Of a stretch of 21,070 nucleotides of DNA, positions 2-17,574 are shown one piece after another. Where the stretch lies: assembly GCA_031409655.1 (NCBI GenBank), contig JANNXQ010000017.1:1-21070 (forward strand), read 5' to 3'. The position numbers were made by a program, and so were the translations under genes. Positions within the stretch are counted from its first letter, which is position 1, and every line of letters starts with the position of its first letter. The notes under the pieces were generated by a model. The model worked only from the letters and a program-made list of their open reading frames with translations. It searched no databases and was not told the DNA's origin. This DNA is from Chthoniobacteraceae bacterium. GTDB taxonomy: Bacteria; Verrucomicrobiota; Verrucomicrobiia; Chthoniobacterales; Chthoniobacteraceae.

Positions 2-478
2 GCGCAGAGCGTCGGCCAGGAACTCGAACTCACCCGCCGCCGTCTCGCCATGCTCGCGCTCAAGGCCCCGCTCGCCGGCATCGTCGTCTCCGGTGATCTG
101 CGTCGCGCGGAAGGTCAGCCGGTGCAGCAGGGGCAGGTGCTCTTTGAAGTCGCGCCGCTGGAGGAAATGATCGTCGAGATCGATGTGCCGGATCGTGAAA
201 TCAGCCGCGTGCGCGCTGGCCTGCCGCTGCGCTTCCGGCTCGAAGCCTTCGCTGGCCAGCAGTGGAGCGGGAAAGTCGATCGACTCCATCCGCGCAGCGA
301 GCAGCGGGAAGGCCGCAACGTTTTCATCTGCGAAGCTCCGATCCGCAATGGCGATGCGCGCCACGATCTCCGCCCCGGAATGCGCGGGCGCGCGGTCATC
401 GAGGGCGACCGCCGGCCGCTCCTCTGGATCGTCGGCCATCGGCTCTGGGACTTCATCGTGGAGGGGCTGCTCTGGTGA
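2..478 (+). CDS. Periplasmic adaptor / membrane fusion protein (HlyD/RND-MFP family), C-terminal part; 5' truncated by window edge
   Basis: Frame is open from position 2 (AQSVGQELELTRRRLAMLALKAPLAGIVV...) to TGA 476-478. It shows the lipoyl-half motif 'LKAPLAGIVV..EGQPVQQGQVLFEVAP', beta-barrel 'VEIDVPDREISRVRAG..FRLEAF' and the MFP C-terminal 'LRPGMRGRAVI'. Confidence 0.85.
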   Translation, partial: AQSVGQELELTRRRLAMLALKAPLAGIVVSGDLRRAEGQPVQQGQVLFEVAPLEEMIVEIDVPDREISRVRAGLPLRFRLEAFAGQQWSGKVDRLHPRSEQREGRNVFICEAPIRNGDARHDLRPGMRGRAVIEGDRRPLLWIVGHRLWDFIVEGLLW

Positions 479-509: not shown

Positions 510-2675
510 ATGGAATCATCCGCCAGCCGTTCCGTCGTCGAATCCGGCTCGCTGCGTCCGCAGCTCCGCGAAGGCCTGCGCTTTTCCGTGCAAGGCGAGG
601 CCGCCGCGCGGGTCTGCGTGATCGAAGATCCGCACACCTCGCGCTTTCATCGCGTGGGTCTCCATGAGTACCGCTTCATCGCCGAGCTGGATGGCGCGCG
701 CACCCTGGCCTCGATCCTCGCCAAGCTCGCGCGCCATGGCGGCGGCGAATCTTTCAGCGAGGCCGAGGCGTTGCAGATCATCCGCTGGCTCGCCGGCAAT
801 CACCTGCTGGAAATCGAAAGCGTCCGCCCAGCGAGCGAGCGCGGTGAAATGGTACGCACGCTCGTCACCGCGATCACCTGGCTGAATCCGCTCATCCTCA
901 AGGTCCCGCTTGCTCGACCGGATCGACTCTTCGCCGCCCTCGCCCCCGCCTTCCGCTGGGCGCTCGGGGGCTTCGGATTCGTGGTCTGGTGCGTGGTCGT
1001 GCTCGCCGGTCTCGCGCAGGTCGCAGTCGAATGGACGCGCTTCTCCGCTGGCTTCGAAGGCATCCTCGCCCGCGACCGCTGGCTCTGGCTGCTGCTCGTC
1101 TGGACGGTGCTGAAACTCGCGCACGAATTCGCCCACGGGATTTTCTGCCGCCACTTCGGGTCCGCTGTCCGGGAGATCGGCGCGATCTTCGTGCTCTTTG
1201 TGCCGATGGGTTACGTCGATGCGACCACGAGCCTCGGCCTCGCCTCAAAGTGGCGCCGCATCATGGTCGCCTTTGCTGGCATCTACCTGGAGTTCTTCCT
1301 CGCTGGTCTTGCCGCCCTGGCTTGGGCGCGCACGCCGGAAGGCTCGCTCGCCGCGACGCTGCACTCCGTGATCATCACCGGCACGGTCGTCACACTTTTT
1401 TTCAATGCGAATCCGCTGATGCGCTTCGATGGGTACTTCATCCTGAGCGACCTGCTCGGCATCTCGAATCTCGCCACCCGCGGTCGCCAGTGGATGCAGG
1501 GTGCGCTGAGCTGGCTGTTCCTCGGAGGAAAGTCGCGCCGGCCGGCCAGGCCGCGCAATCGCGAGGAAGGAATCGTCGCCGGCTACGGCATCGCGGCGGG
1601 CTGCTGGCAGGTGCTCGTCGTGACGGGACTGCTCGTCGCCGCGAGTGTGACCCTGCGGGGCGGCGGACTGCTCTTCGCCGTGATCGCCGCCGCGCTCTGG
1701 CTCGGCGTCCCGCTCTCGCGCGGTGTTGGTGCGCTGTTCCGGTCCGTGCGCGCAGAGACGGGCCGCGGCACCGCCGTTGCGTTTCGAGCAGCCGTGATCG
1801 CGCTCGCTGTCGTCGCGCTCGCTCTCGTCCCTTTTCACCGTTCGGTGTCGAGCGCCGGAGTCATCGAACTCGCTGACACGCTCGTGCTGCGCACGGAGTG
1901 TCCCGGTTTCATCGCCGCGACACACGTGCGCGACGGCGAGAAGGTCGAGGCCGGCCAGCTTCTCTTCGAACTGCGCAATGATGACGCCACCGCCGCCCTC
2001 GAGCGCAGTCGGGTAGAACTCGCCGGACAGGAACTTCGCGCGCGTCTCGCTTTCACTCGCGAGAACGTCTCGGCCGCGCAAGCAGAGCAGGCGAAAGCGG
2101 AAGCCCTGCGCAAGACCGTGGCGCAGCACGAGAGCTACGTGGCGACCTTGCAGATCCGCGCGCCCTTCGCTGGCCGCCTGACCGCGCGGGAGCTCGATCG
2201 CCTCCCCGGCGCTTTCTTCCGCGCCGGCGAAGAACTCGCGCACCTCGGTCGCGCCGACGGGTGCGACGTGCGGATCGCGCTCGATCAGGAAGATGAGCCG
2301 CATTTCCGCGCCTCGCTCGAGCAGGCGCTGCGCGTGCGGGTCGAGGGAATGGGCACCGATTTCCCGGCGACGCTGACCCGCGTCGAATCCCGCGCGACGC
2401 GGGAACTGATCGACCCCGCCCTCACCGCGCTCGGCGGCGGCCCGCTGGCCGTGCGGCACGTCGAGGAGGAAACCTCGACGGATGCGCGGCAATCCGCGGA
2501 GTACGAATTGGCCGAGCCGCACTTCGTCGCCCTCGCGCGCCTCGCCACGGACGAGCCCTTCTGCGCCGGACAAATGGCGCGAGTGAAACTGCACAGCACC
2601 CGCGCCGTGAATCTCTGGGAGCTGGCGCAAGGCCGCCTCGCCCGCTGGCTGAAGACCTTCACCGCCCAGGCCTAA
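510..2675 (+). CDS. Fusion protein: N-terminal PqqD/RRE-like domain + M50 (site-2 protease) zinc metalloprotease + C-terminal HlyD/biotinyl-lipoyl adaptor domain (~721 aa)
   Basis: ATG 510 chosen because the ORF-track start at 183 overlaps the upstream gene. HExxH motif 'LAHEFAHG' (1122-1136) and 'NANPLMRFDGY' NPxxxxDG motif (1404-1436) lie among several hydrophobic segments. The C-terminal part has 'VRDGEKVEAGQLLFEL', a coiled coil and 'IRAPFAGRL'. Confidence 0.88.
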   Translation: MESSASRSVVESGSLRPQLREGLRFSVQGEAAARVCVIEDPHTSRFHRVGLHEYRFIAELDGARTLASILAKLARHGGGESFSEAEALQIIRWLAGNHLLEIESVRPASERGEMVRTLVTAITWLNPLILKVPLARPDRLFAALAPAFRWALGGFGFVVWCVVVLAGLAQVAVEWTRFSAGFEGILARDRWLWLLLVWTVLKLAHEFAHGIFCRHFGSAVREIGAIFVLFVPMGYVDATTSLGLASKWRRIMVAFAGIYLEFFLAGLAALAWARTPEGSLAATLHSVIITGTVVTLFFNANPLMRFDGYFILSDLLGISNLATRGRQWMQGALSWLFLGGKSRRPARPRNREEGIVAGYGIAAGCWQVLVVTGLLVAASVTLRGGGLLFAVIAAALWLGVPLSRGVGALFRSVRAETGRGTAVAFRAAVIALAVVALALVPFHRSVSSAGVIELADTLVLRTECPGFIAATHVRDGEKVEAGQLLFELRNDDATAALERSRVELAGQELRARLAFTRENVSAAQAEQAKAEALRKTVAQHESYVATLQIRAPFAGRLTARELDRLPGAFFRAGEELAHLGRADGCDVRIALDQEDEPHFRASLEQALRVRVEGMGTDFPATLTRVESRATRELIDPALTALGGGPLAVRHVEEETSTDARQSAEYELAEPHFVALARLATDEPFCAGQMARVKLHSTRAVNLWELAQGRLARWLKTFTAQA

Positions 2676-2885: not shown

Positions 2886-3701
2886 CTACCGCGCCACCGT
2901 GCTCACCGGGGCCAGGGTACACCGGGCGCCGCTGCGGAGTTTCCCCTCCGCATTCTCGATTGAGAATTTCACCCGCACCGTGCCGCTCGCCGCGTCGGTA
3001 ATCGGGCTGACGAAATCCACCGTGGCCGGGATCCGCGTTTGCGAATCCAGCAGAAGGAGGTCGAGTCGGTCGCCCGCTTTGAGCGCTTCGGTGCGATCTG
3101 GAGTGAGGAAGAGATTCGCGGCGAGCTTGTCGATCTGGACCACCGTCAGCACGTGCGGTGAGGCCGTGGAAACGCTCTCGCTCGGATCGCGTTTGATTTC
3201 CGTCACCACGCCATCCACCGGGCTGCGCATCGTGCGCGCTTCGATCATCGCCTCGATCTTCCGCACCTGCGCCTGCTTGATCGTCACCTCTGTCGCCGCC
3301 TTCTCGGATTCTTCCGGCGTCACGCGCGTCTGCTGCGAAAGCTCCACCACCCGTTCGCGCCGCGTGCCGGCCAGCTTCGCTTCCGCGCGCGCGATCTCGA
3401 GTTCGGCCGCCAGCACCGCGGTGTCCAGCTTCGCCAGCACCTGCCCTTGTTTCACGCGATCGCCTTCTTTCACCAGCATCTCCCCGATGACGCCTGTCTC
3501 GCCCGCGGAGACGGTGATGAGGCGGTAAGGCTCGGTGTAGCCGAGGGTGGAGGACTCGTCGGCGAGGGCGCTGAAAACACCAAACTCCAAACGCCAAACG
3601 CCAAACATCAAACGCAGAAACATCGAGCCCGCACACAACGTGGACGTTGCCCGAGTTTGGCGTTTGAAGTTTGGCGTTTGAAGTTTGGTGTTTTCTTTCA
3701 T
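2886..3701 (-). CDS. Short periplasmic adaptor / efflux RND membrane fusion protein (271 aa; alternative start at 3623)
   Basis: Motifs 'GVIGEMLVKEGDRVKQGQVLAKLD', a short helical hairpin, 'MRSPVDGVVTEI', 'VDFVSPITDAASGTVRVKFSIENAEGKLRSG'. The ATG lies 1 nt after the secA-like stop (TGA-C-ATG). Confidence 0.88.
   Translation of the reverse strand: MKENTKLQTPNFKRQTRATSTLCAGSMFLRLMFGVWRLEFGVFSALADESSTLGYTEPYRLITVSAGETGVIGEMLVKEGDRVKQGQVLAKLDTAVLAAELEIARAEAKLAGTRRERVVELSQQTRVTPEESEKAATEVTIKQAQVRKIEAMIEARTMRSPVDGVVTEIKRDPSESVSTASPHVLTVVQIDKLAANLFLTPDRTEALKAGDRLDLLLLDSQTRIPATVDFVSPITDAASGTVRVKFSIENAEGKLRSGARCTLAPVSTVAR
3573..3695. repeat. Inverted pair of heptamer tandem arrays (6 x CAAACNN ... 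6 x NNGTTTG) inside the 5' end of the adaptor gene
   Basis: Left arm 3573-3615: g aaaacac caaactc caaacgc caaacgc caaacat caaacgc. Right arm 3653-3695: gagtttg gcgtttg aagtttg gcgtttg aagtttg gtgtttt c. 37/43 positions are complementary. The 37-nt spacer contains a small hairpin caacgt-gg-acgttg. Confidence 0.9.
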
Positions 3702-3702
3702 G

Positions 3703-5583
3703 TCAAAGGGTCTGCTTCAGTTCATCCACCCACTCGTCATTCTGCGCGAGGGCATGGCGTTGATCGCGGTCGAGGGCTTCGGCTTTGCGTTGGGCGCGCA
3801 GGAAGTGCGCCGCTGCGCTGAAAGAGAGTTCCCCGCACTTGCCCACTGCCGTCCGGGCGAGCTGCTGCGCGGCATCGGGAGCGTGGCGCAAGAGCAGATC
3901 GTCTTCGAGCGAAAGGAAAAATTGGGCGCCTCCTGGCTGGCCCTGGCGGGCGGCGCGGCCGGTGAGTTGGCGATCGATCCGCGCGGACTCGTGCCGCTCC
4001 AGGCCGATGACGTGGAGCCCGCCAGCGCGGCGGGATTCCTCCGGCACCGGGATGTGGGCGCCGCGGCCCGCCATGTTTGTCGCGATGGTCACCGCACCGG
4101 GTTCGCCCGCGAGTTCGACGATGGCGGCTTCTTCCGCGTCCTGTTTGGCATTGAGCACCCGGAAGGGAAAGCCAAGCGGGGCGAGCGCTTCCGCAAGCGC
4201 TTCGCTGTTTTCGATCGTGCGGGTGCCGATGAGCACGGGCTGACCTTCGCTCCGGCGCGTCCAGACATCGCGCGCCACGGCGGCGTGCTTTTGCTCGCGC
4301 GTGGCGAAGACCCGATCAGGCAGCAACTCCCGGCGCGAAGGCCGGTGGAGCGGGATCACTTCCGTCTCGAGGCCGTAGCTCGCGCGCAGCTCGTTCGCCA
4401 CCTCGGCGGCAGTGCCGGTCATTCCGCAGACCCGGCGATAGAGGCGGAAATACGCGGGCCGCGTAATCGTCGCTTCACTGGAATTTTCATCCGTGATGGT
4501 GACGCCCGCGCAGGCTTCGACAGCCTGGTGCATGCCGCCGCGCCAGGTGCGCTCGGGGCAGAGGCGACCGGTGAATTCATCCACGATCACCACTTCGTCC
4601 TTCCGCACGACGTAGTGGACATCGCGCCGGAAACGAAACCGCGCCCGCAGCGCCGTCTCGACGTAGTGCGACCAGCCGCGCTGGAGCAGGGGGATCACTT
4701 CTTCGGCGAGCAGCGTCATGGCGTGCTCCTCGCCAGCCGGCGTGAGCGTGAATTGCGGGGCCCTGAAATGCTCGCTGGCGACGAGTTGCTGCGCGACGCG
4801 ATCGGCGTGGAGATACACTTCCGGGGTGTCGCTCGGACGCTTCATCCCCCCGGCGATGATCAGCGGGCTGCGCGCTTCGTCGATGAGCACGCTGTCCGCT
4901 TCGTCGATGATCGCAAAGGCGTGCCCGCGCTGCGTCAGCGTGGGCCGTGTGGTCTTGCGGCGGAGCAGCACTTCGTGAAAGCGCGGCTCGGTGCGGCCGG
5001 CGGCCCGCAGCGCGAGCTGATCGCGCAGATAGTCGAACCCGAAATCCGTGCCGACGCCATAGGTCACGTCGCACTGGTAAGCCGCGCGTGCTGCCGCCGG
5101 ATTGGGCTTTTCGGGCAGCAGCCCGATCGTCAGCCCGAGCCGCTCAAAGGGGGTGCGGGCGAATTCGAAATCCCGCTGCGCGAGATACGGATTCACCGTG
5201 GCGACGTGGGCGCCGAGTCCGTGCAGGGCAAAACGAAACGCCGGGAGCAGCGCGACGAGCGTCTTGCCTTCGCCCGTGGCCATCTCGGCGAGCCGCCCTT
5301 CGGCGAGAGTCAGCCCGGCGAGCATCTGGCAATCGTAGGGCGCGAAACCATGACAACGCCGCACGGCTTCGCCAATCAGCGCGCTGGCTTCTGCCGTGAA
5401 ATCCGCGCGCACCGGTTCGTCGCGCGCCTCTTCGCGAAGCGCCGTCGCGCGTTCGCGCAGCCGGCCTTCTGACTCGGCGTGCAGGTCCGCGGAAAATTCG
5501 CGGACGCGTTCAAGTGCGAACGAATTCCGCCGCGCCGTGCGGCGCTCAGGCTCGAGACCGAACAGCGATTGGAGCGCACGCAT
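3703..5583 (-). CDS. secA: Secondary, C-terminally truncated SecA paralogue (SecA_DEAD-domain ATPase, 626 aa)
   Basis: SecA motifs occur in order: AEMATGEGKT, ATVNPYLAQRD, FGFDYLRD, IIDEADSVLIDEARSPLII, VDEFTGR, GMTGTA, GQPVLIGT, VLNAK, ATNMAGRG, GGLHVIGLERHESARIDRQLTGRAARQG, FLSLEDDLL. The protein ends ~60 aa later, so it is a paralogue rather than the housekeeping SecA. Confidence 0.93.
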   Translation of the reverse strand: MRALQSLFGLEPERRTARRNSFALERVREFSADLHAESEGRLRERATALREEARDEPVRADFTAEASALIGEAVRRCHGFAPYDCQMLAGLTLAEGRLAEMATGEGKTLVALLPAFRFALHGLGAHVATVNPYLAQRDFEFARTPFERLGLTIGLLPEKPNPAAARAAYQCDVTYGVGTDFGFDYLRDQLALRAAGRTEPRFHEVLLRRKTTRPTLTQRGHAFAIIDEADSVLIDEARSPLIIAGGMKRPSDTPEVYLHADRVAQQLVASEHFRAPQFTLTPAGEEHAMTLLAEEVIPLLQRGWSHYVETALRARFRFRRDVHYVVRKDEVVIVDEFTGRLCPERTWRGGMHQAVEACAGVTITDENSSEATITRPAYFRLYRRVCGMTGTAAEVANELRASYGLETEVIPLHRPSRRELLPDRVFATREQKHAAVARDVWTRRSEGQPVLIGTRTIENSEALAEALAPLGFPFRVLNAKQDAEEAAIVELAGEPGAVTIATNMAGRGAHIPVPEESRRAGGLHVIGLERHESARIDRQLTGRAARQGQPGGAQFFLSLEDDLLLRHAPDAAQQLARTAVGKCGELSFSAAAHFLRAQRKAEALDRDQRHALAQNDEWVDELKQTL

Positions 5584-5592
5584 CGCGGCAGC

Positions 5593-7371
5593 TCATTTGC
5601 CCGGGCGCGTGGACTTGCCGTCGCGGGCGCCTTTTTCGAGATGGAGCAGCGGGAGCTTTTTTTCGTCGCGATCACGGACGATCTCGACGGACGAGTAGTT
5701 CAGCAGCCGGCCCTTGGCGCGTTCGAGATTCACGATGGCGATCTGATAGTTTGCTCCGGCGCGGATGAATTCCTCCTCGGCATTGGCGCGGCGATCCTGG
5801 GTGTCGAGGACGGTGTCGAGGTAGTTGGCCATCAGCGTGTCTTCGCCCACGGCTTGCAGGGCGCGGCGGGCCTGGAGCGTTTCGAGATCTTCGGTGAAGG
5901 CTTTCACTGCCGAGTATTTCGCCTGCGTCTCGCGATAGGCGGTGGCCACCTCGCGCGCGCTGATCTTCACCTCGAGCAGCACGGTGTCGATGGTCGTACG
6001 GAGTTGGTCGAGCTGCTGGCGGAGTTCGAGTTTGCGGCGTTCGAGGCGCGCGCGGGCGATTTGATTTTCCAGCGGGATGCTGAAGACAAATCCTGCGCCC
6101 CAGCCCGGGGAGCCGGTGGAGTACTCGCGGCTGTAGGCCCCGTCAAAGCCGCCGTCGTCGAGTCCGCCGAGCGAGCCTTGAAGCACGAGATTCAGCTCGG
6201 GCATGAGTTCATTGCGTGACATTTTCTCCCGCACCGTGGCGGCGCGGAGTTGGAGAAAAGCCTGGTTGATCTCGGGCCGGCTCTCGAGCGCGGCCTGCGC
6301 GGCTGCCTGGCCGTCGAAGCTCGCCGGCGTCAGCACCAGCAAGTCCCGCGGGATGATCTCGATATTCGGATCATTCAGCAAAGTGGGGTCGCTGGTCAGG
6401 GCCTTGAGCCGGTCCTGCGCATTGCGCACGGCGGCTTCGGAGCGGACGAGATCCGAGCGCCGTGAAGCCAGCGCGCTCTCGGCGCGGAAGAGCTGGCTTT
6501 TCCCGGCGTCCATCTTCTGGCGGGCGCGCAGTTCATCGGTCACCCGCGCGGTGTCTTCGACGAGCCGCGATTTTTGCAAATAGGTCACGCGAGCGGCATA
6601 GAGCGCCCAGTAGGTGCGGGTGATTTCGAGGAGGTGCGATTCGCTCTGGCGGATGAATTCCTGCATCGCGATTTCCGAATCGAGCCGCGCGATCTGGATC
6701 ACGGAACGGTTGTAGCCCACGCCCGCACCCTTGAGCAGCGGCTGCACGACGGAGACGGAGAGCTTCGCGTTCGATTGCGGATTGGGGAGGAAGTAGATCG
6801 AGTTGTTGTCCGTGCGGGAGAGGGTCTGCGAGACACTGATCTCTGCGCCAGTGATCACCTTCTTTTTCACCCCGGCCTCGAATGACCACTCATCCTGCTT
6901 GAAGCGCGTGGAGCCGCCGGTCGTAAGGCTGCTGCCGACGGGATCATTGGTGCGGTCAAATTTTCCCTGGAGGTAGGCGTTCGTGTCGAAGGCGCCCTTC
7001 GCCTCCTGGATGCCCGTCTCGCGGATCAGTGGCAGGTCGCTGAAGACGCGGATCTGGCTCGAATTGCGGATCGCCCGGACGTACAGCTCGTCCACCGAGA
7101 GGCGCTGGGCCCGGCTGGAGTCGCCGATCGTGTTGCGCTGGCCGCGAATCCACCAAGGGGAAAAATCTTCCGGCATTTTTGCCTCGGTCTGGTTCGCAAA
7201 GCTGCGATTTCCGCGCCCGGCGCTGGCCGCTTCGCGGCGGTAGCCCTCGAGGATTTCCTGCTCAACGGCGGTCGGCTCGAGCGCCACATTTTCCTGCGCG
7301 AGCAAGCGTCCGAGGCTGATGAAGACAAGGATCGCGGCAAGGTGGCAGGTGTGGATGATAGGGTATTTCAT
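5593..7371 (-). CDS. TolC-family outer membrane factor (~592 aa; alternative start 7398)
   Basis: Signal-peptide-like MKYPIIHTCHLAAILVFISLGRLLA-QEN, followed by two OEP-like repeats with helical and beta-strand motifs: 'IQEAKGAFDT', 'LSVSVVQPLLKGAG', 'ALESRPEINQA', 'RNELMPELNLVLQ', 'GFVFSIPLENQIARA', 'YQIAIVNLERAKGRLL'. Confidence 0.88.
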   Translation of the reverse strand: MKYPIIHTCHLAAILVFISLGRLLAQENVALEPTAVEQEILEGYRREAASAGRGNRSFANQTEAKMPEDFSPWWIRGQRNTIGDSSRAQRLSVDELYVRAIRNSSQIRVFSDLPLIRETGIQEAKGAFDTNAYLQGKFDRTNDPVGSSLTTGGSTRFKQDEWSFEAGVKKKVITGAEISVSQTLSRTDNNSIYFLPNPQSNAKLSVSVVQPLLKGAGVGYNRSVIQIARLDSEIAMQEFIRQSESHLLEITRTYWALYAARVTYLQKSRLVEDTARVTDELRARQKMDAGKSQLFRAESALASRRSDLVRSEAAVRNAQDRLKALTSDPTLLNDPNIEIIPRDLLVLTPASFDGQAAAQAALESRPEINQAFLQLRAATVREKMSRNELMPELNLVLQGSLGGLDDGGFDGAYSREYSTGSPGWGAGFVFSIPLENQIARARLERRKLELRQQLDQLRTTIDTVLLEVKISAREVATAYRETQAKYSAVKAFTEDLETLQARRALQAVGEDTLMANYLDTVLDTQDRRANAEEEFIRAGANYQIAIVNLERAKGRLLNYSSVEIVRDRDEKKLPLLHLEKGARDGKSTRPGK

Positions 7372-7427
7372 GGGCTGACTCGGGAGCGCTCCAAGCATGG
7401 AGCGGCACCCTCTTGCAACTGGCAGAC

Positions 7428-7482: not shown

Positions 7483-10400
7483 ATGCGTAGAAACCCTGAC
7501 AACCGCCATCGGCGTCGTCCCCTCCTCCTCGAAACCATCGAGGACCGCACCCTGTGCAGCGCGGTGCCGGCCGTGGCGATCAGCGCACCGCCGCAGCCGC
7601 TGGTCGGCGAGCAGATCCAGCTCAGCGTTGCCTTCGATAATGCGCATCCGACGGACTCCGGCTTCGGGCCGTATGTGGATGTGGTGCTGCCGGCGACGGG
7701 CGCGGATGGCGACGGGGCGCAGACGGATGATGGCATCTCCTTCGTCAATGGGAGCGCGACCTACCTCGGGGCGGCGGTCACGACGACGGTGCTGACTTTC
7801 GATGGGGCAGGAAATGCCGCGCATCCGTACGCCAGGGACGCGAGCGGGGCGGCGGTCGTGGTCACGGGGACGCCGGGGAATCAACTGGTGGTCTTCCAGC
7901 TTCCGTTTGGGAGTTTCGCGCCGACCCAGCCGGCGGCGACGATCAACTTCTCCGCGAACGTCAGCAATCTCGCGGATGTCGGAACCGGGCTGAACCTCCA
8001 GGCGCGCGGCGGATTCCAGTATGGCGATGACGCGCTGGATAACCCGGCGAGCGATCCGTCGCTCGTCGGCGCGTATGCCAGCAGCACGGTCACGCCGCAG
8101 CTCTTCACGCTCACCAAGACTTTCCTCGGGCTGGAGGATGAAACGGCGACCGGGCCGAATTTCCTCCGGCAGTATCGCATCACCGTCGATGTCGCCGCCG
8201 GGCAGACCCTCACGAATCTCGACCTGACCGACGCGCTGCCGGGCACGCTGCAATATGTGAGCACCGACGCGACGACGATCCGCGGCACGCCCACGGGGAC
8301 CACGGCGGTGAGCACGCCGGGGACGAGCACGCCGGGCGGCACGCTCACGCGGCGCTTTGCCAGCGTCACCGGCACCACGGCGACCAATGACGCGGAGTTA
8401 CTCTTCACTTACTTCGTCCCGCGCATCGACAGCGGCAGCGGGGTGATCGTGAACGCGACCAGCGGCAACGCTGTGACCATCGGCAATAACGCGCGCACTT
8501 CCGGAACGTGGGTGCCGCTCGATGGGCGCGACACCGGTGGCGTCGTCTCGATCGACCCCGCGGGTCCCGAGCACACGCTCACCGCGAAATCCATCGCGAC
8601 GCAGAAGTCCGTGGCGATCGTCACCGACACCGGCGCGGTCGGCGCGACGCCCGGCGACACGCTGGAGTACACCGTGCAGGTCCAAGTCTCGGATTACTTC
8701 GCTTTCCAAAATCTCGTCCTCACCGATCTCATCTCCGACGGCCAGCACTGGGACAGTACCTTCACGCCGACGATGTCGTGGAATGAGCACGGCACCTTTG
8801 CTGCCGTGGGCTTGAATGCGACGAACTACACCGTCGCGCAGAACTTCACCGGCGCCGTCGCGAGCGGAAACCTCACAATCGACCCCGCGGCCAATGACGG
8901 CACCACCACCGTGAGTTTCCGCGTCTCGGATGAAATGGTGACGCGCGGTCAGGATGGCAAACTCCTCGGCGGCGGCATCCCGAATGGCGGCACCGGCGTC
9001 GGCGCGCTGCCCAACAATCCGCCGCTGCCCTTCGGCCCGACGACGATGACGGTGCGCTTCCGCACGGTCATTCAGGATTCCTTCAACGACACCTTTGCGA
9101 GCGGCGAGGCGCCACTGAATCCGCGCGACGTGCTCGCCGACGCGGTGACGATCAATGGCGATCTGCTCCAGGTGAACAACGTCACCACGACGACCGGCCA
9201 GAGCGAAGCGGACACCTCCGCGGCGAGCATCGCCATCGTCAATACCGCGGTGAGCAAGAGCATCTACGCGATCAACGGCAGCACCAATCTCGCGCCCTTC
9301 ACCGGCCCCGCCGGACAGCTTCTCGTGAGCCCCGCGGACACCGTCACCTATCGCCTGCAATTCGCCGTGCCCACGGGCGACGTCGAGAATCTCACGCTCA
9401 ACGACTATCTCCCGCTGCCCGTCTTTGACGCCACCCAGGTCACCGCATTTCAGGATACAATCAGCGCCGCCCCACCCGCCGCGGGCTTCGGAAAATTCGG
9501 GCCGAATGAAACGCTGCGCGCGCTCACCGGCGTGCCACCGACGATCACGACGAACGCGACGAACAATCTCGTTACCTTCAACCACGGCACTGCCGACGAT
9601 CCCGCGAACACCCCGCGCATCATCGATCTGCTCTTCACCGTGACGGTGAGTAATCAGCCTTTCACCGACGGCCTCTTCCTCACCAACCAGGTGCAGGTGA
9701 GCGAAAACAACACCCAGCAGCCCGCCGTCGCGGCGGTCTCCGATGCCATCGTGCAGATTCAACTTCAGGAGCCCGCGGTGTTCATCGCGAAAGGCGTGGT
9801 CGGCTATAACACCACGGGGCTGACGCTCGGCGGCATTGCCTTTTCCGCGGCGAGCGCGGCCTCGAGCTTCACCGGCACGGTAAGCAACGCGACCCAGGCC
9901 GCGGCGATCGGCGCGAGCAATCTCGCCGGCAATCTCGTCGATGCCGGTGATGAAGTGCGCTACGCGATCGTCGTCCAGAACACCGGCCGCAACGACGCCT
10001 TCGACGTGAACCTCACCGACGGCGTGGTCGCGGGCTACACCATCCCCGGCAGCCTCGCCGCCGCGAATCTGGTGGTGCGCCGCGGCGACGGCACGCTGCT
10101 CACGAGCGGCACCGATTACACCGCCTCCATCAACGGCGGTGGCGTCCTCAGCCTCACGCTCACGGATAACTACACGAGCGGGAACACCAGCGGCGACACC
10201 GACTCCGGCGCACTTAGCCGCGGGCAGAATGCGAACACCGGCCTCGCGATCACGAACGGCTCGAACACCGTCGTCATCACCTACGATCTCACCCTGGCCG
10301 CGAGCACGACGCAGACGCGCTCCACGCTGACCAATACCGCGACGCTCACCAACTACGCGGGCGCCGAGGGCGGCGTGGACTTTACCACCACGGACCTGAC

Positions 10401-13400
10401 TGACACCGCGACCGTGCAGCTTGCCAGCCCGACCGTGGCCAAGGCGCTCACCGCCACGGAAGTCACCACCGGTAACAACAGCAACACCCAGGCGACGATC
10501 GGCGAACTCGTGACCTACACGCTCACCATCACCGCGCCCGAAGGCACCACGCCTTCTGCGACACTCGTCGATACCATGGCCGCGGGGCTCGCGTTTGTGG
10601 ACGTGGTGAGCGTCACGAATTCCGCGGGCCTCACGACCGCGAACACGATCGGCACCGGCACCGCGCCGACAAATGTCACCATCGCCGGCAGCGGCCGCAC
10701 GCTCACTTTCAACTTTGGCAACATCACGAATGCGGACAGCAGCAACGGCGCGGCCGAGACAATCACCATCGTCTATCGCACCGTCGTTCTCGACGCCCTC
10801 GCCAATCAAGCCGCCGTCACGCTCACGAATTCCGCGGTCTTCTCCGCTCAGTTCACGAATCAGCCCGGCGGCTCCCCGCAGAGCTACAGCCTGGCCGCGG
10901 TCGCGGCGGCGAATGTCACGATCATCGAGCCGGCGCTCGCGGTGGCGAAGACGGTCTCCTCGACGCTCGGCGGCGCCTACGCCGCGACGCTCACCAATCG
11001 CGACGCGGGGGACTCCGTCTTCTACCGCATCCGGATCACCAATGCCGCGGCCCAGCCCACGGCCTTCGATATCTTCCTCACCGACACGCTGCCCGCGACG
11101 CTCTCGGGCGCAACCATCGCGAGCGTGACCACGAGCGGTTTCGGCGCGACGCCGGTGCCAGTCGCCGGTGACTTCCAAATCTCGGGCGGCATCGTGGGCA
11201 TCAATCCCGCCGGACCGCGCGCAGGCGACATCGACATCCCGGCCGGCGCGACGCTCGATGTCTTCGTCGGCGGCACGCTCTCCTCCACGGCGCAGCCCGC
11301 GCAGAGCATCGCCAACACCGCCACGATTCGCTGGACGAGCATGGATGGCAGCGTCGGCACCCGCTCGACTTTCAACGCGGCCGCCACCGAGCGCAGCGGC
11401 GGCTCGCTCACGCCGGCGACGAACACGAACGCGAGCACGAACAACGCGATCCTCGACAACTACGCGGCCACCAGCGCGAGCGGCGCCGTGACGATCGTGA
11501 GTCCGACGCCGACCAAGACGATCGACGCCACTTCCGAATCCGGCACCGGCAACGTCGCCGGAGTCGAGCGCGTCGCCATTGGCGAAATCGTCCGCTACCG
11601 GCTCTCGTGGCGGATTCCCGAAGGCACGTCGAACAACCTGCGCTTCACCGACGCGCTGCCCACCGGCATGACCTTCCTGAACGACGGGACCGCCACACTC
11701 GCCTTCGTCTCGACGGGCGGCACGATCAGTTCTTCGATCGCGGCCATCGGCACCGGCGGGAGCGTCATCGGCGATGAAACCACCGTCGCCGGGATCAATC
11801 CGCAATTCGTCATCCCCGGTGCGCAGATCACCGGCGGCCCTTTCGTCAGCGGCACCGATCCCGTCTTCAATCTCGGCAACGTCGTGAACAACGACAACGA
11901 CGCGAACCAGGAATTCGCCGTGATCGAATTCAACGCCAACGTGCGCAATCAGACTTCGGCCCAGCGCTTCGACAACGTGAGCGGCGCGGACACCGGCGCG
12001 GTGAATCTCAGCAACACCGTGACCGTGGCGACGACGACCAGTTCCGTAGCTTCCGCCGCCGTCGTCGCGCGCATCACCGAGCCCGCGATCACCAATGTAA
12101 CCAAGACGATCTCGCCCGGTCCCTACGATGCCGGCGACTTCGTCACCTACACCGTCACCTTCTCGAATGTGAACTCGGTCGATGCCGCGCCCGCCTACGA
12201 CGTCGCGCTCACCGATCTGGTGCCCGCCTACTTCGACACCGTGACCTTTGGCAGCATCACCGCCACCGGCACGGCTTCCGGCCTGAGTGGGAGTGCGGTG
12301 GGGAATACGATCACCGCGAGTGTCGCGTCGCTGAATCCCGGCGCGACGATCACCGTCACCTTCACCGCGCGCTTCATCGGCAATGCGCCCGCGGGCCAGC
12401 AAGTCACGAACACCGCGAGCCTCACCTACAGCAGCCTGCCCGGCTCCGGCGCTGCGCTCAATGACGGGGTGGCCGCGACCACCGATAGCACGCCCGCGGC
12501 CGCGGGCACGGCGACCGGCGAACGCAATGGCTCCAGCGGCACGGGCGCCGACGCCGGCTTCCTGAATAACTACGCGGACATCGGCAGCGTGACGATCACG
12601 GCGGCGAATCCGACCTTCGACAAGACCTTCCAAGGCGGATCGCTCACCGCGGACGATACCAGCGTCGCGGGCAGCAGCGGCGCGACGGTCGTCCCCGGCG
12701 AGCAGGTCACCTACGACATTCTCATCGCTCTGCCGGAAGGTCTCACCCAGGCGCTCAGCGTGATCGACGCCGTGCCTGCGGGGCTGCGCATCGACGGCCT
12801 GCAAATCCTGACCACCACAGCATCCGCCCCGCAGCTCACCGCGGATTTCAATGGCAGCTTTGCGACGACGCCCACGCTCGGTGCGGCCTTCACCGGACCC
12901 GGAAATCTCACGCTGAACTTTGGCGATACCACCGTGGCCTCGGATAACGATGGGACGAATAACAGCTTCGTCATCCGCCTCACCGGCACGGTTCAGAACA
13001 TCGCCGGCAACACCGTCGGCGTGTCGCGCACCAATACCGCGACGGTGCGCTTCACCGATCCGAATACGGGATTGCCGGCCATCTTCGCCGACACGAATCC
13101 GGCCAATGATCCGGTCGTCACGGTCGCCGAGCCTGCGCTCACGATCGGCAAGTCGGTGAACTCCGTGACTGTCGATGCGGGCGATCCGCTCAGCTATACG
13201 ATCACGCTCGGCAATGCCTCGGGGCAGATCGCCTACGATGCGACGCTGAACGATCTGCTGCCCGCCTTCCTCAGCGGAGCGACGATCACTTCCGTCACCA
13301 AGTCCGGTGCGGGGACCATCTTCGTGAATGGGGTGGCGACCGATCCGGTCGCGAACACCGATGTCGTGATCTCGAGCGGCACGCTGCAATTTGCGGGCGG

Positions 13401-16400
13401 CTCGAATATCGACCTGGGCGCGGGGACGACTTTGCAGATCGTCGTGAGCGGCACCGTCGCGAGCACGGTCACGCCCAATCTGACGGTCAACAACACTGCG
13501 GCGACCACCTGGACGAGCACCGACGGGGCGAACGCCGACGAACGCGACGGCTCGGGAGGTGCGATCAACACTTACTCCGCGAGCAGCTCGATCCCCTTCA
13601 CGGTGCCCGTCGCGAGCATCACCAAGGCGCTCTTTTCCACCAGCGACGTGGTCACGACCGGGACGGATATCGCCATCGGCGAGACCGCGACTTACGTCCT
13701 CACCGTCACGCTGCCGGAAGGCACGGCGCCCAATCTTATCGTCACCGACGCCCTCCCCGCCGGGCTGCAATACGTCTCTGCGAGCATCGACCCGTCGGGC
13801 TTCGCCGGCACCGTGCCCGCGCCGACGATCAGCGGCGGCGCGGGCAATGGCGATGACGTGACCTTCACCTTCGGCAGCATTGCGACCACCGGAGACAACA
13901 ACGCGTCGAATAACAGCTTCGTCATCTTCGTCACCGCGCGCGCGCTCGACGGGCTGGGAAATATCGGCACGACACCGGGCCAGACCTCCCTCGCGAACAG
14001 TGCGTCGCTCGACATCACCGGCGACGGCGTAAGTCCCGCGACCACCCCGAATGTCACCGCAACCGTCGTGGAGCCGCGCCTGCAAATCACCAAGGCCGTG
14101 AGCGACAACACGCCCGACATTGGCCAGACGCTCAACTACACGCTGACCGTCGCGCACACCGCGTCGAGCACCGCGACCGCGAATGACGTGCTCGTGCGCG
14201 ACCTGCTCCCCGCCGGGCTCGCACTCGACACCGCGAGCATCCGCATCAATGGCGTGCTCATCGGGGCGTCACCGCTCGTCGCCGCGAATGCCTCCACGAG
14301 CAGCGCGCTGGATTTCCGCCTTACCTCGGTCGCCCTCGCGAGCACCGTCACCATTACTTACGATGCCGCGGTCACCAACAGCGTCGCGACCAGCGGCAGC
14401 GTGCTCGACAATCGCGCGAAGATTTACTGGGACAGTCTCGCCGGTTACGACGGCAACAACAGCACCCTCACCGGCACGCCCGATGGCAGCGAAGAGCGCG
14501 ACTTCGGCGCCACCCCCGGCTACGACGAAGCACCCACCCCCGGCGTCAATGACCCCGCGCAAGACAGCGAACGCGTGACGGTGAATACGAACACGATCTC
14601 CGGCTTCGTCTATCGCGATGACGACAGCAGCGGCACGCGCTCCGGGGGAGACACGGCCATCTCCGGAGTCACCCTCACGCTCACTGGCACGAGCACGCTC
14701 GGCCTCCCGATCAATACTTCGGTGATGAGCGCGGTGGATGGCAGTTACTCTTTCACCGGTCTGCCGCCCGGCACCTATCTCATCACCGAGACGCAGCCCG
14801 CGGGCTATGTGGACGGACTGGAGACGGCGGGAAATGTTGCGGGCACCTTTGGTGGCACCGTGTCCCCCGCGCCCGGCACCGAGACGATCAGCGCGATCAC
14901 CATCCCCGCGCAGTCGAATACCACCGAGCCGAACTACAACTTCGGCGAGACCCTGATCTCCAGCCTCGCCGGCTCGGTCTTCGTGGATGGAGACAATGAC
15001 GGCGTGCGCGACTTCGGCGAAGCGGCCCTCGCCGGCATCCCCGTCGTTCTCACCGGCACCGACATCTACGGTCAGGCCGTGACCTTGAATGCGACGACCG
15101 CTGCGGACGGTCGGTACAGTTTCGCCGGCCTGCGCCCCGGCAACTACACGCTCACCGAAGACGACAGCAGCGTGGTGCCCGGCACTTATCTCGATGGACG
15201 CGACCTGCCGGGCAGCGCCGGCGGCGCCCTCGGAGGAGGATCGCCCAAGCACGACGTGCTCACGGTCTCGCTCCCGCAGGGCACTGCGGGCGTGGACTAC
15301 AATTTCGGCGAAGTGCTTCCGTCATCGCTCGCGGGCTCCGTCTTCCTCGACGCGGATGGTAATGGCGTGCGCGGCGGCGCCGAGACGGGCCTTCCGAATG
15401 TGACCGTCGCCCTCACCGGCACGGACGATCGCGGCAATGCCGTCTCGCTCTCGACGCTCACGAATGCCACTGGCGCGTTCAACTTCACGGACCTGCGGCC
15501 CGGCAGCTACACCCTCACCGAGACGCAGCCCGCGGCCTATGCCGACGGCACCGACGCGCCCGGCACCCTCAGCGGTGCGCTGGCAGATGATGTCATCTCT
15601 GCCATCCCCGTGACGCCTGGTGTCGCGGGCACCGGCTACACCTTCGGCGAGCTCCCCGCCGGCATCTTCGGCACGGTCTTCATCGACCGCGATGCGGATG
15701 GCGTGATCGACACCGCGGACACAGCACGGCTCGGCGGCGTGGCGATTACCTTGCTCGACAGCGGCGGTGGCATCGTCGGCTCCACGCTCACCGCCGCGGA
15801 TGGCACTTACTTTTTCGACGGACTCGCCGCAGATACTTACACCGTCGTGCAGAGCCAGCCGACGGGTTACGGATCGAGCACCGCGAACAGCGTGAGCATC
15901 GTCCTGCCCGGCGGCGGCACCGCGTCCGCGGATTTCGGCGAGACCACCGGGTCGCTTGCGGGTGTAGTGTATCTCGATCGGAGTAACGACGGCGTGATCG
16001 ATGGTGGCGAAACTCCGACCTCCGGAACGACCGTCACGCTCACTGGCACCGACGCGACCGGCGCGACCATCACCCGCAGCACGCTCACGCTGGCCGACGG
16101 CAGCTACGCGTTTGGCGATTTGCTCGCCGGCACTTATCAAATCGTCGAGACGCAGCCCAGTGGCTACAGCGACGGGCGCGAGACGGTCGGCACTGGGGGC
16201 GGCGACGCCACGGTGAACGACCGCTTCACTGCCATCGCCCTCGCCGCCGGCGCAAGGGAGAGCGGTTATTTGTTTGGCGAGCGCCTGCCCACAGACCTCG
16301 TCACCACCAAGACCGACGGGCTGAATGCCGCGCGCCCCGGCCAGGTCATCACCTACACGATCACCGTGAGCAACGTTTCGCTGCAAGAGGTCGAGGGACT

Positions 16401-17574
16401 GCTCGTCACCGATCAATTCCCCGCCGATGCGCTCGAATTCCTGAGCGCCTCCAATGGCGGGGTCTTCAACGCCGCGACCGGCACGATCACCTGGAACCTC
16501 GGCCAGCTCGCCAGCGCCGGTGGGAGTGTCACCCTCACCATCGACGCTCGCGTCCGCACCCCCGCGCCGGCGCTCGTCGAGCGGATCGTCAACACCGTCA
16601 CGGCGATCGACACCCAAAACCCCGGCTCCGATCCCTCGCCCGAGAATAACACCGCGACCGACCGCGACGACCTCCCTGCGGCGCCCGATCTCTACATCGT
16701 AAAGACGACGAACCTCGCCACTGCGAAAGCCGGAAAGACGATCACTTACACCCTCAATGGCGGGAATTCGGGCGACCAATCCGCCGCGCGGGTGATCGTC
16801 TCCGATCCGCTGGCGCCGGGTCTGCGTTTCGTCTCGGCGACGCTCGGCGGGCGGCTCGTGGGCAACGCGGTGCAGTGGGATCTCGGCACGTTGGCCCCGG
16901 GCGAGACCTTCACGCTCAGTGTGACGGTCGTCGTCGAGCAGACGGTGGCGGGGAACTTCGTGAACACCGCGACCATCACCGACGCGAGCCAAGGCTTCGA
17001 AGATCCGACGCCGCAGAACAACACCTCCAGCGTCCCCGGTCAGATTGTGGCTTCGCAGACGTTCGCGTTCGATGGGTTCAATAACTTCGCTCGGAACAAT
17101 CTCGATCGCGCGCTCGACTGGCGCGTGCGCAGTCCCGAAGTGCTCGCCGACGCCATCCTCCCGCTGCAACCCATCTACAGTGGCGAAGCCGACCCCGGCT
17201 CCACCCTGGTGATCGAGCTGTATAATTCCCGCGGCGTGAACATCGGCTCGCAGACCGTCGTCACCGACACCGGCGGCAACTGGCTCGCCACCTTCCCGAG
17301 CACGATCCTGAAGGACGCGCCGAACACCGCGCGCATCACGCAGATCGCGGCGAGTTACAGCCTCAGCGATCCGTGGGGGCACAACCTCCGCACTTACTTC
17401 ACGCCCGCGATCAATAACGGCCACTTCTTCCTCGATCAGCGCGGCGGCGGCGACCTCACGGGCGAAGCCGCGCCGCTCCTCGGCGGCCTTGGGCTCGAGC
17501 AGCCGCTGCAGCTCGGCGCGGTGAAATATGGTGGTGAGTTCCTGACCAGCCAGTCCACCGCGAGCGGACGGTAA
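7483..17574 (+). CDS. Giant extracellular adhesin-like protein (~3363 aa): LEPR-XLL/planctomycete-type leader, ~12 isopeptide (D2-type/DUF11-like) Ig modules, 5 SdrD-B-like modules, 2 DUF11-like modules, C-terminal Ig-like tail
   Basis: Single 10-kb ORF, Thr/Ala/Gly/Asn/Asp/Val rich. Start MRRNPDNRHRRRPLLLETIEDRTLCSA chosen because the ORF-track start 7342 overlaps tolC. Repeating 'K..GD/GE.V.Y...D.LP...NTA' modules (~8100-14590), 'SxxGxV[FY]xDxDxDG' modules (~14590-16290) and 'DLxxxK..G..ITYT' modules (~16290-17040). Confidence 0.92.
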   Translation: MRRNPDNRHRRRPLLLETIEDRTLCSAVPAVAISAPPQPLVGEQIQLSVAFDNAHPTDSGFGPYVDVVLPATGADGDGAQTDDGISFVNGSATYLGAAVTTTVLTFDGAGNAAHPYARDASGAAVVVTGTPGNQLVVFQLPFGSFAPTQPAATINFSANVSNLADVGTGLNLQARGGFQYGDDALDNPASDPSLVGAYASSTVTPQLFTLTKTFLGLEDETATGPNFLRQYRITVDVAAGQTLTNLDLTDALPGTLQYVSTDATTIRGTPTGTTAVSTPGTSTPGGTLTRRFASVTGTTATNDAELLFTYFVPRIDSGSGVIVNATSGNAVTIGNNARTSGTWVPLDGRDTGGVVSIDPAGPEHTLTAKSIATQKSVAIVTDTGAVGATPGDTLEYTVQVQVSDYFAFQNLVLTDLISDGQHWDSTFTPTMSWNEHGTFAAVGLNATNYTVAQNFTGAVASGNLTIDPAANDGTTTVSFRVSDEMVTRGQDGKLLGGGIPNGGTGVGALPNNPPLPFGPTTMTVRFRTVIQDSFNDTFASGEAPLNPRDVLADAVTINGDLLQVNNVTTTTGQSEADTSAASIAIVNTAVSKSIYAINGSTNLAPFTGPAGQLLVSPADTVTYRLQFAVPTGDVENLTLNDYLPLPVFDATQVTAFQDTISAAPPAAGFGKFGPNETLRALTGVPPTITTNATNNLVTFNHGTADDPANTPRIIDLLFTVTVSNQPFTDGLFLTNQVQVSENNTQQPAVAAVSDAIVQIQLQEPAVFIAKGVVGYNTTGLTLGGIAFSAASAASSFTGTVSNATQAAAIGASNLAGNLVDAGDEVRYAIVVQNTGRNDAFDVNLTDGVVAGYTIPGSLAAANLVVRRGDGTLLTSGTDYTASINGGGVLSLTLTDNYTSGNTSGDTDSGALSRGQNANTGLAITNGSNTVVITYDLTLAASTTQTRSTLTNTATLTNYAGAEGGVDFTTTDLTDTATVQLASPTVAKALTATEVTTGNNSNTQATIGELVTYTLTITAPEGTTPSATLVDTMAAGLAFVDVVSVTNSAGLTTANTIGTGTAPTNVTIAGSGRTLTFNFGNITNADSSNGAAETITIVYRTVVLDALANQAAVTLTNSAVFSAQFTNQPGGSPQSYSLAAVAAANVTIIEPALAVAKTVSSTLGGAYAATLTNRDAGDSVFYRIRITNAAAQPTAFDIFLTDTLPATLSGATIASVTTSGFGATPVPVAGDFQISGGIVGINPAGPRAGDIDIPAGATLDVFVGGTLSSTAQPAQSIANTATIRWTSMDGSVGTRSTFNAAATERSGGSLTPATNTNASTNNAILDNYAATSASGAVTIVSPTPTKTIDATSESGTGNVAGVERVAIGEIVRYRLSWRIPEGTSNNLRFTDALPTGMTFLNDGTATLAFVSTGGTISSSIAAIGTGGSVIGDETTVAGINPQFVIPGAQITGGPFVSGTDPVFNLGNVVNNDNDANQEFAVIEFNANVRNQTSAQRFDNVSGADTGAVNLSNTVTVATTTSSVASAAVVARITEPAITNVTKTISPGPYDAGDFVTYTVTFSNVNSVDAAPAYDVALTDLVPAYFDTVTFGSITATGTASGLSGSAVGNTITASVASLNPGATITVTFTARFIGNAPAGQQVTNTASLTYSSLPGSGAALNDGVAATTDSTPAAAGTATGERNGSSGTGADAGFLNNYADIGSVTITAANPTFDKTFQGGSLTADDTSVAGSSGATVVPGEQVTYDILIALPEGLTQALSVIDAVPAGLRIDGLQILTTTASAPQLTADFNGSFATTPTLGAAFTGPGNLTLNFGDTTVASDNDGTNNSFVIRLTGTVQNIAGNTVGVSRTNTATVRFTDPNTGLPAIFADTNPANDPVVTVAEPALTIGKSVNSVTVDAGDPLSYTITLGNASGQIAYDATLNDLLPAFLSGATITSVTKSGAGTIFVNGVATDPVANTDVVISSGTLQFAGGSNIDLGAGTTLQIVVSGTVASTVTPNLTVNNTAATTWTSTDGANADERDGSGGAINTYSASSSIPFTVPVASITKALFSTSDVVTTGTDIAIGETATYVLTVTLPEGTAPNLIVTDALPAGLQYVSASIDPSGFAGTVPAPTISGGAGNGDDVTFTFGSIATTGDNNASNNSFVIFVTARALDGLGNIGTTPGQTSLANSASLDITGDGVSPATTPNVTATVVEPRLQITKAVSDNTPDIGQTLNYTLTVAHTASSTATANDVLVRDLLPAGLALDTASIRINGVLIGASPLVAANASTSSALDFRLTSVALASTVTITYDAAVTNSVATSGSVLDNRAKIYWDSLAGYDGNNSTLTGTPDGSEERDFGATPGYDEAPTPGVNDPAQDSERVTVNTNTISGFVYRDDDSSGTRSGGDTAISGVTLTLTGTSTLGLPINTSVMSAVDGSYSFTGLPPGTYLITETQPAGYVDGLETAGNVAGTFGGTVSPAPGTETISAITIPAQSNTTEPNYNFGETLISSLAGSVFVDGDNDGVRDFGEAALAGIPVVLTGTDIYGQAVTLNATTAADGRYSFAGLRPGNYTLTEDDSSVVPGTYLDGRDLPGSAGGALGGGSPKHDVLTVSLPQGTAGVDYNFGEVLPSSLAGSVFLDADGNGVRGGAETGLPNVTVALTGTDDRGNAVSLSTLTNATGAFNFTDLRPGSYTLTETQPAAYADGTDAPGTLSGALADDVISAIPVTPGVAGTGYTFGELPAGIFGTVFIDRDADGVIDTADTARLGGVAITLLDSGGGIVGSTLTAADGTYFFDGLAADTYTVVQSQPTGYGSSTANSVSIVLPGGGTASADFGETTGSLAGVVYLDRSNDGVIDGGETPTSGTTVTLTGTDATGATITRSTLTLADGSYAFGDLLAGTYQIVETQPSGYSDGRETVGTGGGDATVNDRFTAIALAAGARESGYLFGERLPTDLVTTKTDGLNAARPGQVITYTITVSNVSLQEVEGLLVTDQFPADALEFLSASNGGVFNAATGTITWNLGQLASAGGSVTLTIDARVRTPAPALVERIVNTVTAIDTQNPGSDPSPENNTATDRDDLPAAPDLYIVKTTNLATAKAGKTITYTLNGGNSGDQSAARVIVSDPLAPGLRFVSATLGGRLVGNAVQWDLGTLAPGETFTLSVTVVVEQTVAGNFVNTATITDASQGFEDPTPQNNTSSVPGQIVASQTFAFDGFNNFARNNLDRALDWRVRSPEVLADAILPLQPIYSGEADPGSTLVIELYNSRGVNIGSQTVVTDTGGNWLATFPSTILKDAPNTARITQIAASYSLSDPWGHNLRTYFTPAINNGHFFLDQRGGGDLTGEAAPLLGGLGLEQPLQLGAVKYGGEFLTSQSTASGR

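Follow-up and report, generated by a model that had tools for sequence, protein, structure and literature searches.

The window analysed here is a whole contig of 21,070 nucleotides (contig C17) from a bacterial genome of 6.85 Mb, and the closest homologues of its genes belong to Chthoniobacteraceae. One gene (510-2675) encodes in a single chain a RiPP recognition element (RRE; RiPP, ribosomally made peptide that is modified post-translationally), a site-2 (M50) protease and a HlyD-type periplasmic adaptor. On balance, this fusion appears to act as the signal receptor of a type-I-like export machine without an ATP-binding cassette (ABC) transporter, and probably as its signal peptidase too. 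A 3363-residue protein encoded in the same window is the likely cargo. It is likely that the fusion belongs to an exporter of proteins carrying a short N-terminal tag, and fairly likely that the RRE reads this tag; whether the protease would also remove it is an even bet.

The fusion gene has the following parts:

510-2675, forward strand: fusion of RRE, site-2 (M50) protease and HlyD, 721 amino acids with seven predicted membrane helices
543-821, forward strand: RRE/PqqD-fold domain, residues 12-104, from profile, model and structure comparison
1122-1136, forward strand: HEFAH zinc-binding/catalytic motif, residues 205-209
1410-1433, forward strand: NPLMRFDG motif, residues 301-308, which includes Asp307
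1833-2672, forward strand: periplasmic adaptor domain (lipoyl, hairpin and barrel), from family and structure matches

A longer open reading frame (ORF) starting at an ATG at position 183 was rejected. It overlaps the upstream gene on the same strand, which ends at 478, and homologues are mostly 705-735 amino acids long with a query coverage of 97-100% among the matches listed; therefore, the start is placed at 510. The original prediction described an RRE-like domain, an M50 protease and an HlyD adaptor in one protein, and this three-domain fusion is confirmed as a single 721-residue ORF with a fold match for each domain. The whole-protein model (63 homologues; predicted local distance difference test, pLDDT, 81.4) consists of a three-strand/three-helix N-terminal domain, a membrane region of helices and an adaptor. 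Compared with solved structures, it matches RseP (7w6z, Z 10.1, residues 186-317) and SpoIVFB (8vjl, Z 9.6), and residues 441-708 match periplasmic adaptors (Z 14.7). Foldseek with the whole model gave adaptors only, among the matches listed. There are seven hydrophobic helices, and the loops on the side of the N-terminus are basic. This suggests that the N-terminus is inside, so that the RRE and the active site would face the cytoplasm and the adaptor would lie in the periplasm.

The N-terminal domain was also modeled alone (residues 12-104, 78-row alignment), giving three strands followed by three helices with a pLDDT of 90.9. Compared with 48,161 chains by VIA-align, its top match is lasso B1 (6jx3, Z 10.8, root-mean-square deviation 2.9, 84 aligned), followed by TbiB1 (5v1u, Z 10.1), PqqD (5sxy, 9.3) and TigE (9.3). 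The PqqD/RRE fold proposed for the first 100 or so residues is supported by these matches. Foldseek found nothing at E<=0.001 for this domain; nonetheless, leader-binding RRE proteins were near the top of its ranking. The Pfam PqqD model matches 5/78 of the homologous N-terminal domains (best E 1.4e-8), not that of the window, and the sole match of the domain profile in the PDB is PqqD (E 1.2).

In the protease part, H205, E206, H209, N301, P302, D307 and G308 are invariant in 63/63 aligned homologues (a selection from the best 120 of 359 found). The zinc ligands expected in HEFAH and NPLMRFDG are thus complete; Asp307 is presumably the third, a role assigned from established knowledge of site-2 proteases. 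HE..H is retained in 80 of 83 ORF rows from distant loci, and the remaining rows are fragments. The conservation of NPLMRFDG in 80 related loci was left unused, since the motif was itself the search pattern and the count would be circular. The Pfam M50 match (E 2.6e-5, 24.1 bits) is under the cut-off of 27.2. As in known site-2 proteases, HExxH and NPxxxxDG lie in membrane helices with an RseP-like fold. The best NCBIfam match is the daptide RRE-site-2 leader peptidase NF041824 (residues 28-399, E 1.5e-45, 155.9 bits, with the cut-off at 300). With a score below the cut-off, and with SecA, HlyD and TolC as neighbours, the fusion would work like a daptide peptidase but is not a member of that family.

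These data also bear on an alternative in which the RRE docks the tag and the tag stays in place. The protease would then serve in quality control, acting on stalled cargo or another subunit, or the M50 helices would form the inner-membrane pore. The seven membrane helices and the lack of a conserved ABC transporter are consistent with a pore, and Kamneva et al., who noted the missing ABC transporter, suggested the M50 protein for this role (PMC4452313, in the portions covered). Against this, the invariance of the catalytic residues and the retention of HE..H indicate that proteolysis is under selection, and the nearest NCBIfam model is a leader peptidase. Docking without removal is considered rather unlikely.

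The likely cargo and its tag are encoded as follows:

7483-17574, forward strand: putative surface protein of 3363 amino acids with DUF11, isopeptide/pilin-like and SdrD_B repeats
7522-7560, forward strand: export tag LLLETIEDRTLCS at residues 14-26, a divergent form of the Planc_extracel/LEPR-XLL motif

The N-terminus of the giant protein, from position 7483, reads MRRNPDNRHRRRPLLLETIEDRTLCSAVP. Neither RTX repeats nor a hydrophobic signal peptide was detected in this protein. LLLETIEDRTLCS can be lined up gap-free with 22 tags from related loci, including members that match the existing models. Among the 23 aligned tags, 16 match NF012209 (LEPR-XLL) and 4 match PF07595 (Planc_extracel); the window tag itself scores 18 bits against PF07595 (E 0.0023, cut-off 25.5) and has no match to NF012209. 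A tag profile built without the window tag reaches at least 12 bits in only 2 of the 31,108 ORFs of this genome, which are the giant and a DUF4347 protein on contig C134. The latter (C134:1-1988, reverse strand) has LLLETFEDRILCS followed by DUF4347 and is cut by the contig end.

The portions of PMC8567305 covered describe the LEPR-XLL motif as a presumed novel export signal, regarded as such since 2004, and state that Tuwongella has 52 motif proteins, 20 of which were detected. The supplement lists an 86-kDa 'M50' protein with seven transmembrane helices and an 80-kDa HlyD protein two genes off, both in membrane fractions, as well as a second SecA of 75 kDa. Its size, helices and neighbour suggest that the 86-kDa protein is an orthologue of the fusion. 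Judging by its sheet headers, the supplement lists proteins and not peptides; therefore, it cannot show cleavage.

Co-folding of the RRE with the tag peptide gave 0.37 compared to 0.01 for the best control, with at least 70% of the contacts shared between runs and a partner pLDDT of 50-51. Solved complexes attained the mark applied in 116 of 157 cases and mismatches in 2 of 215. At 0.60 or below it was reached by only 18 solved complexes and both mismatches, and at the 0.37 level a pass is more likely to be wrong than right, except for a guess with good prior odds. The pass may also reflect mere likeness, because RRE-leader complexes have already been solved. The co-fold check is weakly positive.

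The genes next to the fusion and the giant encode further parts of the putative exporter:

2-478, forward strand: 3' end of the gene for a 618-residue GAF-like protein with one transmembrane helix and an HlyD adaptor (Pfam HlyD; weak GAF)
2886-3701, reverse strand: stand-alone HlyD/RND adaptor (TIGR01730 above cut-off; true start probably some codons later)
3703-5583, reverse strand: short secondary SecA of 626 amino acids with DEAD, preprotein-binding and P-loop domains and intact ATPase motifs
5593-7398, reverse strand: TolC-family outer-membrane channel (PF02321)

The 5' part of the GAF-HlyD gene is on contig C19, whose sequence shares an overlap of 141 nt with the start of the window, and the GAF match of this gene is weak (E 0.014, below cut-off). 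The 626-residue SecA has no domain match to the wing/scaffold. The TolC gene and the gene for the giant are divergently oriented. Scanning the window proteins with domain and family models found no ABC transporter.

In 80 related loci, with flanks of up to 10 kb that often end sooner, GAF-HlyD occurs in 72 cases, HlyD in 58, TolC in 39 and a short SecA in 34. ABC ATPase ORFs were found by phmmer in 6/80 loci, and a C39-like query matched in 0/80; an earlier regex count of 0 ABC ATPases was discarded because phmmer found these 6. The locus therefore lacks the dedicated ABC transporter that defines classical type I secretion and the peptidase-containing ABC transporters (PCATs). The core consists of RRE-M50-HlyD, GAF-HlyD and HlyD, with the short SecA and a local TolC as accessory parts. 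A tagged ORF is present in 26/80 loci, and 21 of the 27 tag matches had seeded the profile; regex tag matches in L001, L006 and L007, together with one of the two in L019, were excluded as spurious. In a Pirellulaceae locus (L029:9980-19722) the module occurs twice, as convergent copies.

The tag also tracks the fusion at the genome level. Among 250 Verrucomicrobiota genomes the tag profile is positive in 26/56 fusion-positive versus 4/194 fusion-negative genomes. In 13 of the 26 genomes with both, the tag is on the contig of the fusion, within about 14 kb. The tags of the four fusion-negative genomes are in frames of 78-826 aa; tag matches in frames >1000 aa all come from fusion-positive genomes, and tagged frames reach 19,216 aa. 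For 299 Gammaproteobacteria genomes NF012209 was used, a model independent of the window-related tag profile. It matched in 18/38 fusion-positive versus 2/261 fusion-negative genomes at E<=0.005, and in 23/38 versus 15/261 at E<=0.05. Eight genomes with adaptor-only or weak matches were scored as fusion-negative, and G334 (centre) and G555 (unscored) were excluded. This co-occurrence ties the tag to the operon, not to the RRE in particular. The original prediction of leader-type recognition of the N-terminal motif of the giant gains from the RRE fold, the protease motifs, the co-occurrence in neighbourhoods and in genomes of two phyla and the homology to NF041824; its binding step is weak, at a co-fold value of 0.37, and its cleavage and channel parts are conjectural. 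Its idea of repurposing from RiPPs presupposes an evolutionary direction. It overlooked the earlier publication of the locus (Kamneva 2015) and the standing of the motif as an already known, presumed export signal (PF07595, NF012209).

The genome has two further complete RRE-M50-HlyD genes, on contigs C287 and C295, with intact motifs, giving three divergent paralogues overall. Each of the two adjoins its own GAF-HlyD and HlyD genes, and a short SecA is absent beside both. The C287 operon (C287:7155-12339, L082) is an orphan GAF-HlyD / HlyD / RRE-M50-HlyD set without adjoining SecA, TolC or cargo; in its relatives of G311 and G320, a TolC-like gene follows immediately downstream. In a quick tree the window type and the C295 type form well-supported branches. 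The C287 type consists of two well-supported subclades with a joint support of only 74, so a single origin of this type is not established.

The tags of this genome also fall into dialects. A pattern search found 32 tagged ORFs, 31 of them having a Met no further than 41 residues upstream, and an IEPLEARIAPA profile found 35. The tags on C17 and C134 read LLLET[IF]EDR[TI]LCS, and the 30 other pattern-found tags are of the IEPLEARIAPA type. In L005 and G302, genes closely related to the window gene have the first dialect beside them as well. The IEPLEARIAPA proteins number about 30-35, have frames of ~200-2900 aa and are found on C126, C100, C179, C230, C251, C196 and other contigs, partly as tandem arrays, with nine of them on C126. 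A C-terminus like 'D/N-V-x-L/I-R-E-V' is shared by many. In this genome, neither NF012209 nor PF07595 finds the IEPLEARIAPA dialect or a third dialect that lies inside a sigma factor. Among 90 genomes of the order, the IEPLEARIAPA dialect occurs in 11 and the fusion in 16. The nine best matches to the C287 paralogue are all among these 11 genomes, and in three of the nine a tag and the C287-type gene share a contig. A full-length SecA only, without the short form, is present in 8/9 of them, which is why the short SecA is regarded as accessory. Every one of the three paralogues goes with a tag dialect of its own. This code may not be strict, because one C295-type locus has an IEPLEARIAPA-type gene nearby.

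Another subunit could also read the tag, either the preprotein-binding domain of the short SecA or the GAF domains, with the RRE being structural or binding a different peptide. The short SecA has kept its preprotein-binding domain. GAF-HlyD co-occurs as tightly as the fusion (72/80 loci), so co-occurrence cannot separate the two. However, genomes of the C287 type carry the IEPLEARIAPA tag with, in 8/9 cases, a full-length SecA only. The third strand of the RRE (SRFHRVG, LQYFRMT or LRFFEMG) changes by paralogue group together with the tag dialect, and the co-fold gives the RRE and tag weak support. A reader other than the RRE therefore seems improbable.

The third dialect belongs to the C295 operon:

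C295:3073-4746 (L083:1574-3247, P0123): extracytoplasmic function (ECF) sigma factor with internal tag IQPLEQRRVPSATG, with relatives in L125, L126 and L127

After the sigma factor the reading frame continues with a Met, the motif IQPLEQRRVPSATG and then an acidic, divergent and poorly conserved tail with a weakly hydrophobic C-terminal stretch. The Met and L-E-x-R-R-V-P-S are invariant in 14/14 aligned homologues, found with a search region that contained the motif, and the tails diverge. Among 121 genomes of the family, the sigma-tag fusion occurs in this genome and in G692, G699 and G705, which are the three with close C295 orthologues. Its gene is always inside the operon, so that 4/4 genomes with a C295 paralogue have it within the HlyD / GAF-HlyD / RRE-M50-HlyD set. 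The motif of G705 reads LDARRVPS. A fifth, weak match covers the sigma part only. The machine may free the sigma factor by cutting at the tag, or an internal start may yield a small cargo; the arrangement suggests that the C295 operon couples sigma release to export. No description of a sigma-tag fusion was found in a full-text literature search, which had most subscription journals beyond its reach.

The tagged sigma factor is also consistent with the fusion being a regulatory site-2 protease or a RiPP maturase. The giants would then exit otherwise, for example through a C39-ABC transporter together with a second adaptor in the window:

17991-19220, forward strand: type-I-like HlyD directly 3' of the giant gene

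The position of this HlyD gene fits such a route, as does a peptidase-domain-like ABC transporter gene (C134:5396-7837, forward strand), which is 3.4 kb away from the second tagged gene and has no HlyD seen adjoining. The ABC gene presumably carries a C39 motif. One genome, G291, has tags and no fusion. However, the HlyD at 17991-19220 has no ABC partner in the window and only one weak match (E 7.5e-5) in the 80 related loci, and was rejected as a conserved part of the exporter; the C39-like query and ABC ATPases fared as described above. The nine window proteins scanned include no RiPP modification genes, Dap enzymes among them, and the tags track the fusion in two phyla. A purely regulatory or maturation role is therefore very improbable.

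For the fusion as receptor and probable peptidase, a mechanism can be proposed. The cytoplasmic RRE would hold the tag in the form of an extended strand, the way RREs bind RiPP leaders. The site-2 active site, close to the membrane's inner face, would then cut the tag off, most simply after Arg22 if the daptide leader register holds, or otherwise near Ser26/Ala27, which is allowed because conservation continues beyond the Arg. The adaptor domain of the fusion, GAF-HlyD and the stand-alone HlyD would form a periplasmic tunnel docking on TolC. In the window subtype, the short SecA would push the unfolded giant through, N-terminus first.

Several points weigh against this interpretation. The RRE fold is not proof of function, because enzymes that do not bind leaders score closely behind (PKMT2, Z 9.0; Rv2067c, 8.4; NovN, 7.8). 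Classical site-2 substrates are hydrophobic and the tag is not. Conservation extends 3-7 residues beyond the tag Arg, which leaves the cut site unfixed. The Fisher p-values of the co-occurrence (1e-16 to 1e-6) are overstated since related genomes are not independent, and the Gammaproteobacteria cut-off of 0.005 was picked after the table was seen. No tag was found in 30/56 Verrucomicrobiota and 20/38 Gammaproteobacteria fusion-positive genomes; these may have divergent dialects, broken assemblies or other substrates. G291 (96% complete, ~120 contigs) has 16 tagged ORFs without a fusion or GAF-HlyD detectable by three fusion queries and one GAF-HlyD query. It may be an assembly gap or a true exception, and argues against an obligate link between tag and fusion. 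G264 likewise has one tag and no fusion. In the daptide system, the L-7/M-4 requirement was measured for the RRE of MpaB, not of MpaP, and the passages covered contain no direct MpaP assay (10.1101/2023.03.08.531785).

A broader proposal is offered only tentatively. The RRE-site-2-adaptor protein, a homologue of RiPP leader peptidases, may define a distinct secretion system as receptor and signal peptidase for LExLExR proteins. Paralogue-specific dialects would sort dozens of cargoes per cell, the system would work with or without a dedicated SecA motor, and one branch would release a tag-bearing ECF sigma factor on engagement and cutting. The LEPR-XLL motif marks some of the longest bacterial proteins. 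If the fusion is indeed the reader of this motif, this would establish an ABC-less, N-terminal-signal route through TolC that is tied to RiPP leader processing, and the tag could serve as a short portable signal for the export of very large proteins.

The window also has two further genes, both considered as candidate parts of the exporter, and two kinds of repeats:

19255-20163, reverse strand: HEAT-repeat protein
20170-21069, reverse strand: PPC and lysyl-oxidase-like protein, cut by the contig end

An imperfect palindromic intergenic repeat of ~205 nt is located at 2676-2885 and at about 17600-17800, with 89 blastn hits on 35 contigs. This repeat gives the ORF at 17598 a spurious N-terminal extension. 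At the start of the stand-alone HlyD ORF (about 3500-3701, reverse strand), the initial 40-68 codons match short stretches on several other contigs, which suggests a second dispersed repeat at or in the 5' end of this ORF.

The locus, the motif and the RRE-site-2 fusions are each known already; their connection was not found in the searched literature. No paper linking RRE, M50-HlyD and tag, and none naming a reader machine for the Planc_extracel/LEPR-XLL motif, was found in the same full-text search. The passages covered of PMC4446572, PMC8277102, PMC10885120, PMC12749797, PMC10952558 and 10.1101/2023.11.21.568195 do not make this connection either. Kamneva 2015 (PMC4452313) describes a module of a short SecA without wing/scaffold, GAF-HlyD, M50-HlyD, HlyD and sometimes an outer-membrane efflux protein (OEP). 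The window locus, with a short SecA beside GAF-HlyD, M50-HlyD and HlyD, has the same gene set and likewise no ABC transporter. Unlike that secondary-SecA module, two paralogous operons of this genome lack an adjoining short SecA. The main text of PMC4452313 has 0 occurrences of PqqD, leader and Planc_extracel, and the portions covered do not name the cargo. The window tag is similar to Planc_extracel (PF07595) and LEPR-XLL (NF012209) and below both cut-offs. The Chlorobium symbiosis giants carry the LEPR-XLL motif, according to the part of 10.64898/2026.03.19.712371 covered.

A likeness in domain order is seen with the daptide proteins MpaP/DapP, which also have an RRE N-terminal to an intramembrane site-2 protease. 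In the passages covered, MpaP is said to remove a leader with the consensus ELExMEAP, which resembles LExLExR, and the MpaA leader is numbered E-8 L-7 D-6 P-5 M-4 E-3 A-2 P-1 (10.1101/2023.03.08.531785). This leader was aligned by eye with I-E-P-L-E-A-R and L16-E-T-I-E-D-R22. Unlike MpaP/DapP, the window fusion has an extra adaptor domain, and its neighbour is a 3363-aa protein and not a short precursor.

PCATs offer a parallel in their fusion of leader recognition and removal to an inner-membrane component, and an adaptor with TolC is common to the window locus and C39/classical type I secretion. The window system differs in that it has no ABC domain, a metalloprotease rather than a cysteine protease, no double-Gly leader and a cargo without RTX. 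The protease shares its fold and zinc ligands with SpoIVFB and RseP (Z 9.6 and 10.1). SpoIVFB acts on a sigma precursor, which offers an analogy for the sigma-tag fusion, where the removable part would be C-terminal to sigma. Where SpoIVFB and RseP have CBS or PDZ domains, the window fusion has an RRE and an adaptor.

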